Part shown: positions 8,286 to 62,597 of the stretch, one piece after another | Layout of the letters: each line of letters opens with the position of its first letter | Numbering within the stretch: position 1 is the stretch's first letter | Assembly (NCBI RefSeq): GCF_011045215.1 | Contig: NZ_CP049201.1 | From: Escherichia coli | Lineage (GTDB): Bacteria > Pseudomonadota > Gammaproteobacteria > Enterobacterales > Enterobacteriaceae | DNA length: 64,000 nt | Strand: one strand, 5' to 3' | Notes under the pieces: model-generated | The model's database searches: none | Seen by the model: the letters and a program-made list of their open reading frames with translations, nothing else | What the model was told of the DNA's origin: nothing | Translations under genes and position numbers: made by a program

Positions 8286-9680
8286 ATGCCATTTAAAAAA
8301 CTCTCCCGACGCACCTTCCTGACGGCAAGCTCCGCGCTTGCCTTCCTCCATACCCCTTTCGCTCGCGCACTTCCCGCCCGACAAAGCGTTAACATTAACG
8401 ACTACAACCCACACGACTGGATCGCCTCATTTAAACAAGCCTTCGGCGAAGGGCAAACGGTCGTCGTGCCTGCCGGATTGGTTTGCGACAATATCAACAC
8501 CGGCATCTTCATTCCTCCTGGCAAAACGTTACACATCCTTGGAAGCCTGCGCGGCAACGGCAGAGGGCGATTTGTCTTACAGGACGGTAGCCAGGTGACA
8601 GGGGAGGAGGGCGGCAGTATGCATAACATCACCCTGGATGTGCGTGGCTCTGACTGCACCATCAAAGGGCTGGCGATGAGCGGCTTTGGCCCGGTAACGC
8701 AGATTTATATCGGCGGCAAAAACAAACGGGTCATGCGCAACCTGACCATCGATAACCTCACTGTCAGCCACGCTAATTACGCCATCTTACGCCAGGGATT
8801 TCATAACCAGATAATCGGTGCCAACATCACCAATTGTAAGTTCAGCGACTTACAGGGCGATGCCATTGAATGGAACGTGGCGATTAACGACAGTGATATT
8901 TTGATATCTGACCATGTCATCGAGCGCATCAACTGTACCAACGGCAAAATCAACTGGGGCATTGGCATAGGCCTTGCGGGAAGCACTTACGATAATAATT
9001 ACCCGGAAGATCAGGCAGTGAAAAACTTTGTCGTGGCGAATATCACGGGATCGGATTGTCGGCAGTTGATCCATGTTGAAAATGGTAAACATTTTGTTAT
9101 TCGTAATATCAAAGCCCGCAATATCACGCCGGATTTCAGTAAGAAAGCAGGTATTGATAACGCCACGGTCGCTATTTACGGTTGTGATAATTTCGTGATT
9201 GATAATATTGAAATGATTAATAGCGCCGGGATGTTAATCGGCTATGGGGTAATTAAAGGCAAATATCTCTCGATACCGCAAAATTTCCGAGTGAATAATA
9301 TTCAACTGGATAATACCCACCTTGCTTACAAATTGCGCGGTATCCAAATCTCCGCCGGGAATGCTGTCTCCTTTGTGGCGCTGACTAACATTGAGATGAA
9401 GCGTGCGTCGCTGGAGTTACACAACAAACCGCAACATCTTTTTATGCGTAATATCAATGTGATGCAGGAATCCTCTGTTGGACCCGCATTGAGCATGAAC
9501 TTCGACATGCGCAAAGACGTTCGCGGCGTCTTTATGGCGAAAAAAGAAACACTGCTGTCTCTTGCAAATGTTCATGCGGTGAATGAAAGAGGGCAAAGCT
9601 CCGTCGATATCGACAGGATTAATCACCATATTGTTAATATGGAAAAGATTAACTTTAGATTGCCAGAACGGAGGGAGTAG
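8286..9680 (+). CDS. wcaM: Colanic acid biosynthesis protein WcaM, 464 aa
   Basis: ORF track; signal-peptide-like N-terminus; last gene of wca cluster. Confidence 0.88.
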
Positions 9681-9837
9681 ATTTGCGACCATTCATAAAC
9701 TTACTGGATATAATGTTCTAAAAGATTATAATCCTCACACTAACTGTTAAAGCTGGGGCTGGGCAGCATTGACTACTCAGGGAAGGTACTCATCTTTATC
9801 TTGTGTTTCTTACGTAACAACCAGACTAAAGTGATTT

Positions 9838-10833
9838 ATGAACGATAACGTTTTGCTCATAGGAGCTTCCGGATTCGTAGGAACCCGACTACTTGAAACG
9901 GCAATTGCTGACTTTAATATCAAGAACCTGGACAAACAGCAGAGCCACTTTTATCCAGAAATCACACAGATTGGCGATGTTCGTGATCAACAGGCACTCG
10001 ACCAGGCGTTAGCCGGTTTTGACACTGTTGTGCTACTGGCAGCGGAACACCGCGATGACGTCAGCCCTACTTCTCTCTATTATGATGTCAATGTTCAGGG
10101 TACCCGCAATGTGCTGGCGGCCATGGAAAAAAATGGCGTTAAAAATATCATCTTTACCAGTTCCGTTGCTGTTTATGGTTTGAACAAACACAACCCTGAC
10201 GAAAACCATCCACACGACCCTTTCAACCACTACGGCAAAAGTAAGTGGCAGGCGGAGGAAGTGCTGCGTGAATGGTATAACAAAGCACCAACAGAACGTT
10301 CATTAACTATCATCCGTCCTACCGTTATCTTCGGTGAACGCAACCGCGGTAACGTCTATAACTTGCTGAAACAGATCGCTGGCGGCAAGTTTATGATGGT
10401 GGGAGCAGGGACTAACTATAAGTCCATGGCTTATGTTGGAAACATTGTTGAGTTTATCAAGTACAAACTGAAGAATGTTGCCGCAGGTTATGAGGTTTAT
10501 AACTACGTTGATAAGCCAGACCTGAACATGAACCAGTTGGTTGCTGAAGTTGAACAAAGCCTGAACAAAAAGATCCCTTCTATGCACTTGCCTTACCCAC
10601 TAGGAATGCTGGGTGGATATTGCTTTGATATCCTGAGCAAAATTACGGGCAAAAAATACGCTGTCAGCTCAGTGCGCGTGAAAAAATTCTGCGCAACAAC
10701 ACAGTTTGACGCAACGAAAGTGCATTCTTCAGGTTTTGTGGCACCGTATACGCTGTCGCAAGGTCTGGATCGAACACTGCAGTATGAATTCGTTCATGCC
10801 AAAAAAGACGACATAACGTTTGTTTCTGAGTAA
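9838..10833 (+). CDS. gne: NAD-dependent epimerase, UDP-N-acetylglucosamine 4-epimerase-like (Gne), 331 aa
   Basis: ORF track; N-terminal GASGFVG Rossmann motif and YGKSK catalytic motif; position between wcaM and galF as in strains carrying gne. Confidence 0.8.
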   Translation: MNDNVLLIGASGFVGTRLLETAIADFNIKNLDKQQSHFYPEITQIGDVRDQQALDQALAGFDTVVLLAAEHRDDVSPTSLYYDVNVQGTRNVLAAMEKNGVKNIIFTSSVAVYGLNKHNPDENHPHDPFNHYGKSKWQAEEVLREWYNKAPTERSLTIIRPTVIFGERNRGNVYNLLKQIAGGKFMMVGAGTNYKSMAYVGNIVEFIKYKLKNVAAGYEVYNYVDKPDLNMNQLVAEVEQSLNKKIPSMHLPYPLGMLGGYCFDILSKITGKKYAVSSVRVKKFCATTQFDATKVHSSGFVAPYTLSQGLDRTLQYEFVHAKKDDITFVSE

Positions 10834-53246: not shown

Positions 53247-54140
53247 AAAGCGGTAGAAAAAGTTAAGTTCCCGGTTGATCGAATGGATGCGAATCGCTGA
53301 TCGAACTTCGATGCCAATCCGTGATCGAATAGAGCGGAATACGCATTCTGCCATTACCCACAATGCGCGGTTGAGCTTAATATCGGTGTCGATGTTGTGA
53401 ATGGCACGGGTGTGGATACGTTTTCCTTTTGCACTGCGGCCGGAAATCCCGCCTTTCAGCATATTCTCCTGGATGGTCTGATAAGTACTCCACAGGTCCT
53501 TACCGTAATCCTCCCGGCGTCGTGGCGTCAGAATGTCGGCGGTGGTGACGGGCCGATGTTCGTCACCATAACGGTAAGTCAGTGCCGCCTGTGCCAGCGC
53601 CTGGCGTGCCGGTGGCGGCAGGACCAGCGACTGCATGGCATCACGCTTCTCCTCTATCCGGTCAAACACGCCCACCACCTCGTAAGCCCCTTCAATGACT
53701 CTGTCCACCACATTTCCCCGATGCGGAACACGCACTTCCCCCAGAGACTGACCACAGACGCATCCGTTCTGACAGACGAACCTGAAGTAACCCGGCAGCA
53801 TCTGGTAGCTGGAGGTACCGTCATGGGAGTTGAGCAGAATGATTTCAGGGACATGTTCTCCGTTTATCTCTCCGGCCCGCCGCAGACGCAGCATGTGTTT
53901 TGTGTATCCCCGGCGGCCCGGGTCGCGCACACGGGTCTGGCAGGCGAAGAATGGCTGAAAGCCTTCCCGCTGCAGGCTTTCCAGTACGGTGATGGTGGGG
54001 ATGTACGTATAGTTCTGGCTTCGGGACGTGTGTTTCTCTTCCCCGAAAATCCCCGGCACATAGTGCATCAGTTCTTCGTGTGTCAGCGGACGGTCACGGC
54101 GTATCTGGTTCGCATAACCAAAACGACTGGCTAGTCGCAT
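53169..54140 (-). pseudogene. DUF932 (YafZ/YfjQ-family) gene with 3' end replaced by IS21-family terminal sequence
   Basis: ORF 53169..54140; first about 260 codons look like YafZ family (MRLASRFG...KLNRAL); after about 53356 the reading frame runs into the IS end and continues as unrelated sequence. Confidence 0.7.
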
Positions 54141-54297
54141 AATTTGCTCCTTATCGGTGGTTAAGATTTACTGGTGTAATAAATGAAAAAGCCACGTCTC
54201 CCGGAGAAGACGCGGCCTGACAGATGAAATGAATGACGTTTATTGTCTGAGAAGCCCTTAACTGGCGAGCTGAGTATTAAGCTGTGTTCCGGCATCA

Positions 54298-54489
54298 CTA
54301 GCGCAACTGACCTTCAGCATTACGGATAACCAGCCGGGAATATGTTCCCTGGTCATCTTCAGTAAACACATTGCGGTAAGCTGTTTTGACGACAACAGCC
54401 TGTTCGCGTGAGAAAGGGCCTTCGGGCAATAAACGTGATGTACAACCCGGCATATCTGTTGCTCCCTGAAAGTAAAAGGCCCCGGTCAT
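54298..54489 (-). CDS. Hypothetical small protein, 63 aa (doubtful)
   Basis: ORF track only; lies between the Ag43 remnant and the yafZ-like gene; no recognisable motif. Confidence 0.2.
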
Positions 54490-54523
54490 GATGACCGGGG
54501 CCTGAAGGAGAGTGACCTGATTA

Positions 54524-54595
54524 TCAGAAAGTCACATTCAGCGTGGCCTGACCGTTATAACCTTCAGCGCTGCTGCCGCTGACGCTGTGGGCATA
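54524..54595 (-). pseudogene. flu: 3'-terminal remnant of an autotransporter gene, consistent with antigen 43 (flu)
   Basis: Minus strand encodes [23 protein letters not shown]-stop, a typical autotransporter beta-barrel C-terminus ending in Phe; upstream reading frame is unrelated. Confidence 0.6.
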
Positions 54596-54754
54596 CCGGC
54601 AGGTACAAAACAGCATGGTCAGATAAAGTGGTTTTTCCCGGACATAAATGCTTCCCCTCTCTCATCCGCCAGAGAAGTATCAGTCCGTTGTGTGCAATTC
54701 CGTTCTGCATGATGAAGAGATTCAGCTGCCTTTTCGCAGACCATTAACCACTAT

Positions 54755-54800
54755 AAACGATCGATAGTAACGATCGATACCTGTTTTATCGATCGTTTTA
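54755..54800 (-). promoter_or_regulatory. Cluster of three GATC (Dam) sites in repeated AACGATCGATA motifs; resembles the agn43 phase-variation operator
   Basis: AACGATCGATA twice in direct orientation 13 bp apart plus inverted ATCGATCGTT, directly downstream of the YeeP-like GTPase gene where flu lies in CP4-44. Confidence 0.55.
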
Positions 54801-54912
54801 TTCTATTAACAGCAAGGCAGTCACGCAAGAGAAAGAGGTGGATATGAGGGGGTTGTGTCATGTTTTCAGTTGGTTAACGCAATGTAATCAGGCATTTCCC
54901 CTGGCAGACTGT

Positions 54913-55785
54913 TCAGAAGAAAATCCAGTTCCATACAGCGCGGGCAACAGAGACCACCGAGTCACGGACGGCACGCAGAACCGTGCGTGCAACAGAGGCA
55001 ATACAGACGCTCTCCGCCGTGTCAAATATCCGGTCCACCGCACCGGTAAACTGTTCACGGGCCTGAGACCGGACAGATTCCGTGCGCAGCTCGTCCTGCA
55101 GGCGGGTCATCAGGGGACTGGCGGCATGGTCGGGAAGCGCTGTCATGAGCGCACTGACCAGCATATCCAGTTCCCAGCCGGTGCAGGCCGATACGGCCAC
55201 AACCGGATGTACGGGCCGGAAGAGCCGGAATACCGCATCTGTTTTCTCACGAATGTTCTGTGCCTGTGCGGGAGAAGGCTGAATGCCGGCCATATCCCAT
55301 TCATGGCAGGGCTCCGTTTTGTCGGCCTGCGTCACCACAAACAGCACCTGCTGATGTCCCCGGTGCAGGATGTGTCGCCAGAAATACTCATCCACAGACA
55401 GGGCACGGTCATCGGCTTTAATCAGCCACAGTACCAGGTCAAGTTCAGGCAGAATGTCACGGTACAGGGCTTCATACTCTGCATCCCTGTCCCGGCTCTC
55501 GCCCACCCCGGGCAGGTCAGTGATAACCATGCTGTGACCGTGGCCACTCAGACGGAAGCGCTGCACTTCCCGGGTGCCGGCGTGAACATCACTGACCGGG
55601 GTGACCTCCCCCTGAAACAGTGCATTACAGAGTGAGGATTTACCGGCCCCGCTTTTACCCATAATGCCAATCACGGGTTCGTGACTGGTGAGTTTGCGCA
55701 GATGTTCCAGGATGTGACGGGAAAGTGAGTAAGGCAGGGAGGAGAGCGGTTTTTCAATTGCCTCAATGGCATCAGACGGATTCAT
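54913..55785 (-). CDS. yeeP: YeeP/YkfA/YfjP-family GTPase, 290 aa
   Basis: ORF 54913..55848; start at MNPSDAIEA; G1 motif GKSGAGKSS, G3 DLPG, G4 TQAD. Confidence 0.85.
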   Translation of the reverse strand: MNPSDAIEAIEKPLSSLPYSLSRHILEHLRKLTSHEPVIGIMGKSGAGKSSLCNALFQGEVTPVSDVHAGTREVQRFRLSGHGHSMVITDLPGVGESRDRDAEYEALYRDILPELDLVLWLIKADDRALSVDEYFWRHILHRGHQQVLFVVTQADKTEPCHEWDMAGIQPSPAQAQNIREKTDAVFRLFRPVHPVVAVSACTGWELDMLVSALMTALPDHAASPLMTRLQDELRTESVRSQAREQFTGAVDRIFDTAESVCIASVARTVLRAVRDSVVSVARAVWNWIFF

Positions 55786-55800
55786 ACATGTATTCCCGGT

Positions 55801-55842
55801 GAAAAAAGACAAAACCCCCGCACACCGGAAAGGTGGCGGGGG
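55801..55842 (-). terminator. Rho-independent terminator downstream of the frameshifted cargo gene
   Basis: Minus strand CCCCCGCCACC-TTTCC-GGTGTGCGGGGG followed by TTTTGTCTTTTTT; lies between stop at 55870 and GTPase start. Confidence 0.7.
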
Positions 55843-55869
55843 ACTCACGGAGATAATATATGTCTGAAA

Positions 55870-56788
55870 TTATCTGGAATGTCGGTACCTTTTATACTCT
55901 TCAACAATCAGGTCATGCAGCATTTCGCCGGTACTGAGTCTTCTGACCCTCGATAATTCTTTGAGCTGCGCCCTGGTTTCTGCGTCAAGAAAAAACTGTA
56001 CATTGACTTTATCTTCCTGCATTTTTTTGTACTTGCGCTGCGCCTTGGCCTTATTGAAACTGTTTCTGAAATTTTTTATATCGTCAGGTGAGGTGAGTGG
56101 ACAGGTAACCCATATGTCAAATGAAAGGTGAATTGCGTGGTAAATATCAGCAGAACCAGGAAAACTGGCCAGTTTTTCCAGTGCAATATTTTTTCCCTTC
56201 AAATAATTCCATGTCCATATGCATTCATGTTCGTTCTCCGGGAGGAGGTAACTGAAAGGACTCTTTGATTTAAATGCCCGCATCCATCTGTCTTTGGTCT
56301 GGATTATCCACTCATCCCGCAAATTCTTATCAGAAAGAATATCGAGAACTCTGAGTATTTGTCTGAACTGTGTCGATGAGTCCGACGGGAAGGCATTCCC
56401 TTCCAGATACTCTTCTTTAAGATACAGTTTATTCTTTTGAAGCAAGTCTGCGCTTATTTTTGCCCTGTTATTCTGGATAAACTGCATCAACAGATACCAG
56501 GAAAATAAGCATGCGCGTTCACTGCCCGCGATCCAGGATATTTTTTCCAGGGGGACCAGGAAGGCCAGGGCCTTCAGACGCATACCAGAAATTATTTGTT
56601 CAAGTTCAAAATCTGAAAGTGTGATGTTCAGATTTTCTCTGTTTTTTTTTTATGTAAGCGATAAAACGTTCCGGGGGATCATAAACATTAAGGGGCAGTA
56701 CGGAGATATTACGCTCTCCAAGATAATAAGAGTAATACGCATTTGTTCTTTCATTCATAACCTTATCCGACAAAATTTTCTGAACCAT
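55870..56788 (-). pseudogene. AT-rich uncharacterised gene split by a frameshift in an A10 tract; reconstructed product about 305 aa with C-terminal ribbon-helix-helix-like region
   Basis: ORFs 56606..56788 (60 aa) and 55870..56583 (237 aa) are on the same strand; the downstream frame stays open back to the A/T run at 56642..56651; removing one A fuses them; start ATG at 56788 has GGAGA upstream; C-terminus VNVQFFLDAETRAQLKELSRVRRLSTGEMLHDLIVEEYKRY has a beta-strand plus two-helix RHH pattern. Confidence 0.55.
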
Positions 56789-57472: not shown

Positions 57473-57988
57473 ACGTGTTTCAGATATGTTCCGGCATCAG
57501 TCTGACGGATATTATTTCCCGGTAAAACAAACCGGCTACTGTAACGGTTAACTGTATCTGCATAAATTATTTATGATGAAAGAACAGTATTACGGATTCA
57601 AATATCATCCTGTTTGCATTCAGGCGGACATTCCCGGATGCCGGAAAGAATATCCTGCAGGCTGAGTGAGTCTCTTCCACAGTGCCGGGATCGCTGTCGC
57701 CACGTACATATTGTCACCAGGATGGGTATGTACCGCAGCATGCCATTTCTGGTGAATAACCGCACCTGCACATTCAGTCTGCTGAGAACCTGGCGTGTAT
57801 CGGGCTGTAAAGAACATCCCTGTCCGTGGCTCCTCTGGTGGTGTTGCCTGCTCAGCAATGACAGGATGCCCTTAAGACGCCCGTCATGGCTCAGTATGAT
57901 GACGACGAACACGCTCTGCAGGTGAGCATGCGGGGCCGGGAGCATCATCATTTCCGTATTTTGTCACACCTTCCGGAAGCAACCGGCA

Positions 57989-58606
57989 TCAGTTGCGGCT
58001 ATCGTCAACCGTTGTGCGGTATGCCAGGAGCACGTACTGATCCATCAGATCCGTCAGTGCTGCGCTCTGCCTCTGACGGTTGATGATCCATTCCTCCAGC
58101 TCTTTTTCTGATTTCCGTTTCAGGTTCTCTTTCCAGTCTTCAAGGCTGTTTCCGGTCATTAAATCAAGCCAGCAAAGCCAGACCAGTTTGAGGCGCAACT
58201 CCGTGCCACCAAACTGACGGAAGAGGCTGATCAGTTTATTTGCCAGAGAACGCTGCCTCAGACGTTCACATTCAGACAGGAGAATGCCTTCCAGCATCGG
58301 ATGATGAACCAGCAGATGTTCACTGGTGCATAAATTCACTATCAGATCATCATCCAGGGGCGGCGTGGCCCGTTTGTCAGGGCCATAAATCAGCCGGTGC
58401 AGGCTCTGGGGTACGATGGCAATCTCCGGTTTTTCACCATTGAATGACACCCAACCGGGCGTCAGATTATGGAAGTCGTAGATATTCGGATGACACACGC
58501 CCCAGGATACGGCGTGCCGGGTGAAGCCGGTCAGCCATTTCTGGTAGCTTTCGTGGAGCCATTCGTAGCGGGTCTGATACTGTTGTTTCATTTTCATATT
58601 CCTCAC
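57989..58606 (-). CDS. Uncharacterised protein, 205 aa, immediately downstream of the alpA-like gene
   Basis: ORF track; same strand and 80 bp from alpA-like stop; no recognisable motif. Confidence 0.5.
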   Translation of the reverse strand: MRNMKMKQQYQTRYEWLHESYQKWLTGFTRHAVSWGVCHPNIYDFHNLTPGWVSFNGEKPEIAIVPQSLHRLIYGPDKRATPPLDDDLIVNLCTSEHLLVHHPMLEGILLSECERLRQRSLANKLISLFRQFGGTELRLKLVWLCWLDLMTGNSLEDWKENLKRKSEKELEEWIINRQRQSAALTDLMDQYVLLAYRTTVDDSRN

Positions 58607-58685
58607 GGGGATATAACAGGCAGCAGAATGCCGCCGGCAGGCCGGGGATTACGTCTGCTGCGGGTGAACGGATAACGGTCAGAAA

Positions 58686-58892
58686 TTACGGGCGGGGCTG
58701 TGCAATACGCGCCTGCAGCCAGGCTTCCACTTCACTTTTCAGCCAGCGGGAGCTGCGGCCCAGCTTGATGGGAGCCGGAAAGGCCCCATCCCTGATGAGC
58801 CTGTAAAACCACTTATCTGTCAGGCCGGTCAGTTGAGTGATAAATGCCATGTCGACCATCTGGTCATCCATCAGTGAAACTGGGGTAGCCAT
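58686..58892 (-). CDS. alpA: AlpA-family prophage transcriptional regulator / excisionase-like protein, 68 aa
   Basis: C-terminal 68 codons of ORF 58686..59087 starting MATPVSLMDD after GGAGG; ITQLTGLTDKWFYRLIRDGAFPAPIKLGRSSRWLKSEVEAWL fits AlpA/Xis-like HTH pattern. Confidence 0.75.
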   Translation of the reverse strand: MATPVSLMDDQMVDMAFITQLTGLTDKWFYRLIRDGAFPAPIKLGRSSRWLKSEVEAWLQARIAQPRP

Positions 58893-59340: not shown

Positions 59341-59391
59341 CGTTCATGTATCAGAGTGCAGATACATGAACGCTGATGCGTAAAATCAGCA
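59341..59391. other. Two adjacent inverted repeats (perfect 12-bp stem CGTTCATGTATC/GATACATGAACG, then GCTGAT..ATCAGC)
   Basis: Seen directly; no U-tract; possible protein-binding palindrome; coordinates approximate. Confidence 0.4.
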
Positions 59392-59966
59392 GTGACACGC
59401 CAGCTCCCCCTGTGCCCATTCCTGTATAAGACATGAACTGAGCGTATTAATGCTCCTGCCCTGAGACTGAGCCGGTGAGTGAGGGGCTGAGAAATCCCTC
59501 TTGACACTGCTCTAAACCAGAAATACTTCCCCGGTTGTTGCGGTGCGTCCGGATCCCCGATAACGGAACACTAAGGCTGTATTGCGGGACACCTGGTAAG
59601 TGGCAGCCCGTAATACGTCAGGAGACGCGGGAAAAGTGAATTCCCACACGCGTTATAAACTTACCCTTGCGGAGCTGGAAGCCTTTAACTCTGCCGTTGA
59701 CAACCGGCTGGCAGAACTGACAATGAACAAACTTTACGATCGCGCGCCGGCTTCCGTCTGGAAATATGTCACCTGAATATTGAAGCAGCGCTACGATGAC
59801 TCCGGTGTTATCTGCACCGGAGGACCGGGAACATTAAGCGGTATAGCGACAACAAAGAATTCGAAATCAAAAGGGAATGGTGCCGGAGGCGTGGGCGGTA
59901 ATAGGCTGATTTTCAGGTATTACCGGCCTGTATCTGCTGAAGGGGGCTCGTATTTGTCGGGGCTGC

Positions 59967-60003: not shown

Positions 60004-60491
60004 CTAACTGTGATTGATTCAGGTACCATTTTGCAGGGATCCGGTGCGTTACTGTCTGGCACAACAAACGCAGCGGGTCGCTCTGCTCCGCCGATTCCTG
60101 ATAATCCCTCCCCAGTAACCTACTGCAACAGTACAAATACACTGACGCCTGAAACGGTAACCAGAATCAGCACCAGCAGTAACTCAGTAAACAGAGCAGA
60201 CGATCGGTCTTCCGGTAATAACCGGAAGGAACGACAGCGCCACAATACAGGCAACACACTGTATTATGAGTAATCGAATTACCGCAATCCCCGCATTTCT
60301 TTTTGCGTATCACGATAGCTCCCTCGCCACGCCTTATCCGTAACCGGTTTTTTACATTAAAAAAAACAACGCCGGGAATTCAATCGTCAGTCCGGAGACG
60401 ACCGTTCGGGTTATCACAGAGAGCCTGAGCAGGGGGGCTGCGCATTTTTTACGATGTGGCTATTCCGTATGAACCATACGGAGATATAACC

Positions 60492-61061
60492 ATGACCTAC
60501 AAATACAACCCCTTCTGGCAGCAACGTATTCGTGAGACGGTGCGGCACGCACTGAATGTTCATCCCCGCCTGACGGCATTGCGGGTTGACCTGCGTTTCC
60601 CGGATGTACCGGCAGCAACGGACGCAGCTGTGATATCCCGCTTCATCAATGCCCTGAAAGCCCGAATCGACGCTTACCAGAAACGTAAGCATCGGGAAGG
60701 TAAACGCGTGCATTCCACAACCCTGCATTACGTCTGGGCCCGGGAGTTTGGGGAGTGCAAAGGTAAAAAACACTATCACCTGATGCTGCTGGTCAACCGG
60801 GATACCTGGTGTCGTGCCGGTGATTACCGCGCTCCGGGATCACTGGCCGGGATGATTAAACAGGCGTGGTGCAGTGCCCTGGGAGTGGATGTCGGGTGCC
60901 ATGCCACGCTGGTGCATTTTCCGGCCTGGCCGGCGGTGTGGCTGGCGCGTAATGATGACACCGGCTTTCAGCAAGTGCTGGAACGTGCTGACTATCTGGC
61001 GAAGGAGCATACCAAAGTTCACTGCACCGGTGAGCGCAACTTTGGCTGCAGTCGTGGCTGA
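60492..61061 (+). CDS. Inovirus Gp2-like / YagK-YfjJ-family protein, 189 aa
   Basis: ORF 60456..61061; start at ATG 60492 after GGAGA; KKHYHLMLLVNRD segment recalled from YagK/YfjJ-type proteins; family assignment from memory. Confidence 0.5.
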   Translation: MTYKYNPFWQQRIRETVRHALNVHPRLTALRVDLRFPDVPAATDAAVISRFINALKARIDAYQKRKHREGKRVHSTTLHYVWAREFGECKGKKHYHLMLLVNRDTWCRAGDYRAPGSLAGMIKQAWCSALGVDVGCHATLVHFPAWPAVWLARNDDTGFQQVLERADYLAKEHTKVHCTGERNFGCSRG

Positions 61062-61226: not shown

Positions 61227-61619
61227 ATGTACGCAAAATCCTTTCTCGCTCTTGATGGCAACGGACGTCTGACGGGCGCCCGTACAGCACAGGCCGCACC
61301 TTATGCTCACTACACCTGCCACTTGTGTGGCAGTGCACTCAGATACCATCCGCAATACGACACTGAACTTCCCTGGTTTGAACACACTGACGACAGGCTG
61401 ACAGAGCACGGTCAACAGTGCCCTTATGTCAGGCCGGAGCGCAGAGAAATACAGTTGATTAAACGTCTGCAGCAATTCGTACCGGATGCCTTACCCGTGG
61501 TGCGTAAAGCCAGCTGGCACTGCAGACAATGTCACCACGATTATTATGGGGAGCGGTACTGCACACACTGCCAGACCGGAGGTTTCAGTCTTCCCCGGAC
61601 AGCTCAGCAACTGTCTTGA
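61227..61619 (+). CDS. Cys-rich double zinc-ribbon protein, 130 aa (paralog A)
   Basis: ORF track; CHLCGS...PWFEH then WHCRQCHHDYYGERYCTHCQTG; paralogous to 62783..63193. Confidence 0.55.
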   Translation: MYAKSFLALDGNGRLTGARTAQAAPYAHYTCHLCGSALRYHPQYDTELPWFEHTDDRLTEHGQQCPYVRPERREIQLIKRLQQFVPDALPVVRKASWHCRQCHHDYYGERYCTHCQTGGFSLPRTAQQLS

Positions 61620-61628
61620 ACGTAAAAA

Positions 61629-62597
<969 letters not shown>

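Follow-up and report, generated by a model that had tools for sequence, protein, structure and literature searches.

Within a 64,000-nt stretch of Escherichia coli DNA (contig NZ_CP049201.1; the whole stretch is referred to below as the window), a minus-strand gene of the Aec62 family lies directly downstream of a gene for an AlpA-like regulator. This gene is in the backbone of the tRNA-integrating Enterobacterales islands of the SRL-PAI/CP4-44 type (SRL PAI: Shigella resistance locus pathogenicity island). We hold with high confidence that Aec62 is fixed behind alpA and belongs to the island backbone. Our explanation as a whole, to which we give a probability of about 0.4, adds to this that the backbone gene has the role of an adaptor coupled to induction of the island. 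The two genes are:

57989–58591, minus strand: coding sequence (CDS) of the Aec62 family, 200 amino acids (aa) from the ATG at 58591.
58686–58892, minus strand: alpA-like (Vis/excisionase-type) regulator gene, 68 aa, supported by Phage_AlpA/excisionase matches, among them the PHROG 'excisionase and transcriptional regulator' (1.4e-10) and TIGR01764, and by the NCBI Prokaryotic Genome Annotation Pipeline (PGAP), which names it 'AlpA family transcriptional regulator'.

The association of the two genes was followed through 39 loci, obtained by scanning one genome per species of the Genome Taxonomy Database with the family alignment; seed proteins of the window and of related islands were then matched against the open reading frames (ORFs) of each locus. 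At each of the 37 loci for which there is upstream DNA, the same strand carries an alpA-like gene upstream of Aec62. The two genes are immediate neighbours in 35 of these loci, and a zinc-ribbon gene intervenes in the remaining two (L046 and L050). The arrangement is repeated, through homologues of 28–62% identity, in Yersinia, Klebsiella, Pantoea, Hafnia, Salmonella and metagenome loci. The pair also holds together while its neighbours shift: in most loci the inovirus Gp2/YagK-YfjJ-type gene (HUH rolling-circle Rep-like) is found just before alpA or just after Aec62, and the zinc-ribbon gene is inserted in L011, L046 and L050. Thus the link to alpA that the original prediction had drawn from the window is a general one, while the co-transcription that it took to be probable is still read from the layout.

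What lies beyond the pair is far less constant. The cargo there varies, and includes Dnd with a DndB-like system, BREX with GmrSD, type I restriction–modification (RM), VgrG, HNH with type I RM, and iron uptake, and the divergent side of the loci carries genes for a 305-aa orphan, a GTPase, DUF932, antirestriction, RadC and CbeA/CbtA. In the E. coli layout the alpA-Aec62 pair faces the GTPase module, not cargo. Because Aec62 remains behind alpA while the adjacent cargo changes, it belongs to the backbone and not to the cargo. The backbone of the class comprises the alpA-like gene, Aec62, the Gp2/YagK-YfjJ HUH Rep-like gene, the zinc-ribbon gene, the 305-aa orphan and the YeeP-like GTPase gene, along with DUF932, an antirestriction gene, RadC and CbeA/CbtA. 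The earlier suggestion that Aec62 and a frameshifted gene 1.2 kb downstream might form the cargo of the island is not supported: the frameshift is real, but both genes recur as backbone while the cargo differs, and the downstream gene is found beside the YeeP-like GTPase in many islands of this class. Nor do we place Aec62 in an anti-phage defence system, as it has no PADLOC match and the neighbouring defence systems differ by locus.

The gene had been described as one of 205 aa at 57989–58606, situated 80 bp behind alpA. This maximal ORF is present on the minus strand, opened by a GTG at 58606, with 79 nt between the alpA stop and the GTG and 94 nt to the ATG. The product is, however, most likely the 200-aa protein beginning at the ATG at 58591, because the GTG falls within the Shine-Dalgarno sequence (SD; GAGGA, 58604–58600), all homologues start at the equivalent of this ATG (with 'MK', 8 nt past the SD), and the PGAP call in E. 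coli CRE444 is likewise 200 aa (WP_000813456.1, 'hypothetical protein'). The Aec62 frame is intact in the window and one base apart from that of CRE444. PGAP also calls two 65-aa 'hypothetical proteins' in CRE444, corresponding to window positions 57886–58083 (plus strand) and 57620–57817 (minus strand), one of which runs antisense into the 3' end of Aec62; both look spurious. No ORF in the 1.2 kb that separate Aec62 from the 305-aa gene matches any seed protein.

Aec62 is a family without a recognised domain. Searches of Pfam, NCBIfam, PHROGs, PADLOC and the PDB (sequence and profile) gave no match at E≤0.001 for Aec62 or for any of 63 members of the family, in agreement with the earlier failure to recognise a motif. 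The UniProt name, 'Aec62', is an ORF label only. We define the family by a length of ~175–200 aa, the motifs LEG[IV]LLSEC.RL and L.LLCW, and a common predicted fold; the window protein has this size, these motifs and this fold. An AlphaFold2 model built from a 63-sequence alignment is confident (predicted local distance difference test, pLDDT, 88.6; predicted template modelling score, pTM, 0.87) and shows a long N-terminal helix, a beta-hairpin (residues 43–48 and 56–61), a less confident acidic loop (70–90) and seven further helices. When this model was compared by Foldseek with AFDB50, solely members of the same family were returned, down to an E-value of 2e-31, and the search of BFVD returned nothing. 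Judged from the model, there is no convincing structural neighbour beyond the family itself, and the predicted fold is one not met elsewhere. The AFDB50 matches bear the names 'Aec62', 'Malate transporter' and 'Secretoglobin family protein'; the latter two look like propagated mis-annotation, being supported by neither sequence nor model. With a near-neutral isoelectric point (6.45), and a sequence that has neither signal peptide nor membrane segment, Aec62 is predicted to be a soluble, cytoplasmic, mostly alpha-helical protein of ~200 aa, with ten helices in all and the single beta-hairpin.

The invariant residues in both alignments (A1 and A2) are G102, L104, E107, R110, L111, L139, C140 and W141. 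Most conserved positions have a hydrophobic or aromatic residue, with Y16, Q17, H41, S106, E107, R110 and C140 as the polar exceptions. At position 108 the cysteine is replaced by leucine in the L049-type subfamily, and a catalytic cysteine at this site is therefore unlikely.

The distribution of Aec62 is wide in Enterobacterales and confined to that order. A single-sequence search returned 188 protein clusters, compared with 280 for a profile search, and every one carries the label 'hypothetical'; phmmer over 1.84 billion representatives gave 115 matches, ~10 of them full-length clusters. In the deeper searches (phmmer and profile) no relative was found outside Enterobacterales, and no match carried an additional domain except for fusions with insertion sequences (IS). 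Full-length relatives with 28–65% identity occur in Salmonella, Klebsiella, Enterobacter, Citrobacter, Yersinia, Serratia, Hafnia, Pantoea, Photorhabdus, Providencia, Morganella, Pectobacterium, Brenneria and other genera. Across 69 ortholog pairs with a synonymous divergence (dS) of 0.05–1.5, the median ratio of nonsynonymous to synonymous divergence (dN/dS) is 0.10, and thus the family is under strong purifying selection. Among complete E. coli genomes, 3417 of 5426 (63%) contain the Aec62 CDS at 80% nucleotide identity or more, in 6022 places of which 6019 are chromosomal, with a median of two copies and a maximum of six per genome. A phage or plasmid origin was considered and rejected: the gene is present in one 3.6-kb phage record that has no annotation, and among 72,556 plasmid records in 9, most of them the size of a chromosome.

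Three Aec62 loci (L026, L029 and L049) come from metagenome-assembled genomes labelled Clostridiales, Bacillota and Collinsella in the genome_contigs set. The genes flanking Aec62 in L026 and L029 are 59–79% identical to enterobacterial island genes, and the AlpA of L049 is 90% identical to that of the window; these loci are probably binning contamination and the labels not those of the true hosts. Some islands carry paralogue pairs. Salmonella L013 has two Aec62 genes in tandem behind alpA (9273–10525; hhalign probability 100), and in L025 (10965–11627) and L035 (14692–15120) a second copy is found further downstream, beside extra Gp2-like and zinc-ribbon genes.

The spacer between alpA and Aec62 is itself conserved, and its elements, taken from an alignment of 24 spacers, are:

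58592–58685, minus strand: 94-nt leader, conserved across genera.
58645–58634, minus strand: hairpin CCGG-CCTG-CCGG, 4–5 bp.
58628–58616, minus strand: 13-mer box TTCTGCTGCCTGT, almost invariant.
58604–58600, minus strand: SD, GAGGA.

In the hairpin, pairing is kept in 86.6% of alignment cells, and eight sequences have CG, AU or UA in place of GC as the closing pair, a modest covariation that was matched by none of 500 shuffles. No locus has more than one copy of the exact 13-mer, and every copy is immediately 5' of Aec62. In L046, where the zinc-ribbon gene separates Aec62 from alpA, the hairpin, box and SD all remain with Aec62. We rejected the idea of the 13-mer as a dispersed binding site, since it is not repeated elsewhere in the window or in the loci. 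In single-sequence folds (z-scores +0.4 to -1.2) the SD pairs with the U-rich beginning of the box, and ~75–85% of the aligned sequences keep these pairs, without covariation; sequestration of the SD by the box is thus only a possibility. RNAalifold found no consensus structure for the leader, scans with Rfam and for tRNAs found nothing near Aec62, and a search around the gene for iterons or origin-like repeats was negative. Taken together, the leader is a candidate element that may act as a translational gate or as a binding site.

How might Aec62 function in the island? Co-transcription with alpA is the simplest reading because the two genes are on the same strand, the spacer is 94 nt long, and a consensus scan of it found no sigma-70-like promoter. 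When the alpA promoter of the island fires, Aec62 would then be made alongside AlpA, and the leader may give it separate translational control. Aec62 would act in trans after induction, as an adaptor that binds protein or nucleic acid while the island is excised, replicated or mobilised; in the reading we prefer, it would be an accessory or modulator of the rolling-circle replication or mobilisation step carried out with the HUH Rep and the zinc-ribbon protein. Since related backbones work without it, we would expect an enhancer or host-adaptation factor specific to certain lineages and not an essential excision or replication enzyme.

The mechanistic part, namely that Aec62 is an accessory of the HUH Rep and zinc-ribbon proteins, is doubtful, and is argued by analogy with the alpA-yfjI-yfjJ slot. 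In the CP4-57 prophage of E. coli K-12, YfjI (DUF3987) occupies the same slot as Aec62, directly after alpA and directly before YfjJ (YagK/YfjJ, Gp2-like). The two proteins differ in size, however, with YfjI having 469 aa and Aec62 200 aa; CP4-57 AlpA is of a different AlpA lineage, with which the AlpA-like protein of the window shares only 37% identity over 30 aa; and the function of YfjI is also unproven. An extension of the adaptor proposal, which we consider somewhat less likely again, makes this new-fold family an induction-coupled switch or adaptor of widespread defence and virulence islands, with the leader as its translational gate. As such a switch, Aec62 might bring a host helicase or replisome part to the HUH Rep; alternatively, it might detect a helper element or counteract it.

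Several results weigh against an induction-coupled adaptor in this position. Direct homology with YfjI/DUF3987 had to be rejected (best BLASTP E-value 1.4). The pairwise identities of Aec62 and of the nearest Gp2-like gene correlate weakly (r=0.31, Spearman 0.18), which speaks against a tightly co-evolving Rep partner. A weak terminator-like hairpin with a T-rich tail lies in the spacer, and expression could be uncoupled from alpA. Finally, when IMG/VR was searched in the reverse direction, with an alignment of the alpA lineage of the window (22 loci), L056 and L064 were found to carry Aec62 among the loci with AlpA of at least 60% identity, but six distinct loci (L057–L063, L061 and L062 being near-identical) have the Gp2, GTPase and DUF932 backbone without it. 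In the latter, alpA is followed at once by cargo (arsenic-resistance genes, ATPases), and tblastn of these loci detected no Aec62 remnant. The dependence is therefore one-way: Aec62 is never found without alpA upstream, yet alpA backbones exist without Aec62, and Aec62 is accordingly a lineage-specific accessory that the basic module does not require. To the question of whether the gene is a conserved partner of AlpA or variable cargo, the answer is thus that it is conserved behind alpA wherever it occurs and is not variable cargo, while these six related backbones do without it.

The position behind alpA is also compatible with Aec62 being a regulatory partner of AlpA itself (a co-activator, a feedback anti-activator or a second DNA-binding regulator) that sets the level or timing of induction. 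An AlphaFold2 model of the fusion AlpA-(GGGGS)5-Aec62, made with a shallow set of 31 paired sequences and without predicted aligned error, has a pTM of 0.63 with both domains confident and the linker disordered, a score which is about that expected of two independent domains. This coarse test lends no support to a direct complex. The pairwise identities of AlpA and Aec62 correlate moderately (r=0.44–0.52), and in several pairs AlpA is 85–91% identical while Aec62 is only 28–59% identical. In the mirror-tree comparison, Aec62 identity goes with that of the backbone genes for the GTPase (r=0.62) and AlpA (r=0.52), and is closer to that of the GTPase than to that of the nearest Gp2-like gene. A specific co-evolving partner among AlpA, Gp2 and the GTPase was sought by this means and none was found, the pattern being one of co-inheritance at the level of the backbone. 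This shows that divergent types of Aec62 can sit behind nearly the same alpA and that Aec62 is inherited with the backbone. We consider a dedicated AlpA partner unlikely.

An equally improbable explanation is that Aec62 is a 'first payload', a moron-like effector that would target the host, a helper phage or plasmid, or rival elements, and placed behind alpA for the sake of induction timing; it would be, for example, an anti-defence, helper-interference or exclusion factor. The common layout does put Aec62 at the border between backbone and cargo, although in E. coli and Shigella the pair is directed at the backbone and not at cargo. Its restriction to Enterobacterales, with otherwise similar backbones lacking it, the tandem paralogues in Salmonella L013, a novel fold of the kind common among conflict proteins, and divergent alleles behind a near-identical alpA (between the window and L049, AlpA is 90% and Aec62 36% identical) would all suit an effector. 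On the other hand, dN/dS within subfamilies is ~0.1, which does not point to an arms race, PADLOC and PHROGs give no match, the gene is present whatever the type of cargo, and phages and plasmids are almost devoid of the family. The last explanation treats the ORF as no functional gene but a frame that arose by chance or is decaying along with the island. It could appeal to the decay of the island here (the frameshifted 305-aa neighbour and an IS110 transposase with a nonsense change), to the fact that no integrase was seen in the window or the matching part of CRE444, and to the numerous truncated Aec62 entries in databases, but it is effectively refuted by conservation, namely the dN/dS of 0.10, full-length orthologues across many Enterobacterales genera, a confident AlphaFold2 model, an intact frame and presence in nearly two thirds of complete E. 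coli genomes. The Aec62 ORF is a real gene.

We therefore return to Aec62 as a backbone gene with a possible adaptor role, and to the island in which it resides. Only 17 positions distinguish the final 9 kb of the window from E. coli CRE444. In CRE444 the island lies between yeeA/tmaR and the cob genes with tRNA-Asn, which is the CP4-44 site of K-12. CP4-44 of K-12 has lost the matching segment, and no Aec62 ORF was found in the CP4-44 or CP4-57 regions of K-12. On the minus strand of the window, the order is DUF932, YeeP-like GTPase, 305-aa orphan, Aec62 and alpA; it continues on the plus strand with an 88-aa ORF, Hha/YmoA, the Gp2/YagK-YfjJ-like gene and the zinc-ribbon gene, followed by IS elements and gene fragments. 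The neighbours with assigned coordinates are:

54913–55848, minus strand: YeeP/YfjP-like GTPase gene, a backbone marker, with NCBIfam GTPase matches and the PGAP name 'GTPase family protein'.
55870–56788, minus strand: frameshifted backbone gene, here called h305, encoding 305 aa when intact, as it is in CRE444.
59600–59776, plus strand: Hha/YmoA-family gene, called by PGAP in CRE444, with the order as in SRL PAI orf39–orf42.
60456–61061, plus strand: inovirus Gp2/YagK-YfjJ-type gene (HUH rolling-circle Rep-like), PGAP 'inovirus Gp2 family protein'.
61227–61619, plus strand: zinc-ribbon gene of the Zn_ribbon_11/DUF7828 type, PGAP 'putative zinc ribbon protein'.

The frameshift in h305, placed by the original prediction 1.2 kb downstream of Aec62, is due to an extra T at 56642 relative to CRE444. 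The h305 family has no Pfam domain in any locus examined, and comparison of h305 with YfjH gave no similarity. The Gp2-like protein is 36% identical to YfjJ of K-12, and its homologues carry PF11726/PF23343. The zinc-ribbon gene recurs across loci, with PF25165/PF11682 on the homologue in L011.

Further features of the window were seen around these genes. The DUF932 gene is ~770 nt from the YeeP-like GTPase gene (both within 53169–55848), and the island of the window lacks the Ag43/Cah autotransporter and DUF905 genes that CRE444 has between the two. At 59341–59372, between the 88-aa ORF and the Hha-like gene, is a perfect 12-nt inverted repeat, CGTTCATGTATC-N8-GATACATGAACG, which might serve as terminator, operator or origin-like hairpin. 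At 62119 the window has T where CRE444 has A, in the stop codon that splits an IS110-family transposase into ORFs of 165 and 140 aa; the IS110 copy of the window therefore has a nonsense mutation.

Islands of this class have moved Dnd, BREX, RM, iron uptake, adhesin and resistance loci between enterobacterial genomes. Aec62 has long been sequenced and labelled hypothetical, with no family, fold or phenotype attached to it, yet it is present in 63% of complete E. coli genomes, usually in two or more copies. Being common, strongly constrained and part of a small alpA-led control module, it is a cheap and well-defined target for experiments. Should the switch or adaptor role be true, Aec62 would be the missing handle on how SRL-PAI/CP4-44-type islands mobilise; should it be merely accessory, annotation would still gain, with thousands of 'hypothetical protein', 'Malate transporter' and 'Secretoglobin' labels replaced by that of an island backbone marker.

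The closest known proteins are the Aec62 entries themselves (UniProt Q5K5T0 and relatives), which carry the label of an ORF from an island of avian-pathogenic E. coli. These are 95–98% identical to the window protein and superpose on the model with template modelling (TM) scores of 0.97–0.98, and they therefore belong to the same protein family. The 'Aec' label itself is presumably tied to the island AGI-3 of avian-pathogenic E. coli. In the Shigella SRL PAI, orf39 is YfjJ-like, orf40 encodes Hha, orf41 is Vis/AlpA-like, orf42 has 'no similarity', orf46 encodes YeeP and orf47 Ag43 (PMC6980539). This orf39–orf47 order is that of the window, and by position only the window gene is likened to orf42. 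Neither the Aec62 entries nor orf42 go beyond ORF labels to a functional characterisation, and a literature search with 'aec62' or the WP accession found nothing relevant.

The class of element has recently been treated in a 2025 preprint on ARMADA/YprA, which describes tRNA-integrating elements with an integrase, an AlpA-like excisionase and an HUH initiator of rolling-circle replication, with Dnd, BREX or fec as their cargo and, in addition, a 'moron' module of RadC/ArdB/CbtA-CbeA (PMC12458937). The class is termed there 'uncharacterized integrated MGEs' (mobile genetic elements), their movement is only guessed at, and it is proposed that they may be phage satellites (PMC12458937). In the supplement, AlpA (QMG69427) and Rep (QMG69429) are annotated, and the gene between them is left unannotated (PMC12458937).

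In phage-inducible chromosomal islands (PICIs), PIMEs and the vis operon of P4, an AlpA/Vis-type regulator likewise heads co-directional genes for replication and exploitation of a helper. PIME1, from an alpA-led family of islands other than this one, requires alpA in order to excise, replicate and transfer (bioRxiv 10.64898/2026.01.12.698999). The operons of PICIs, PIMEs and P4 differ from the one described here in carrying pri-rep/repA, tra or packaging genes, none of which Aec62 resembles, and no helper is known for this class. Another comparison is with activator subunits of the BisC (DUF2857)/SetC type from the regulator operons of the integrative and conjugative elements ICEclc and SXT, small cytoplasmic helical proteins encoded near an alpA-like gene, which switch on the transfer programme. 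Their likeness to Aec62 is a functional analogy only, and it is in such terms that Aec62 may be compared with them.

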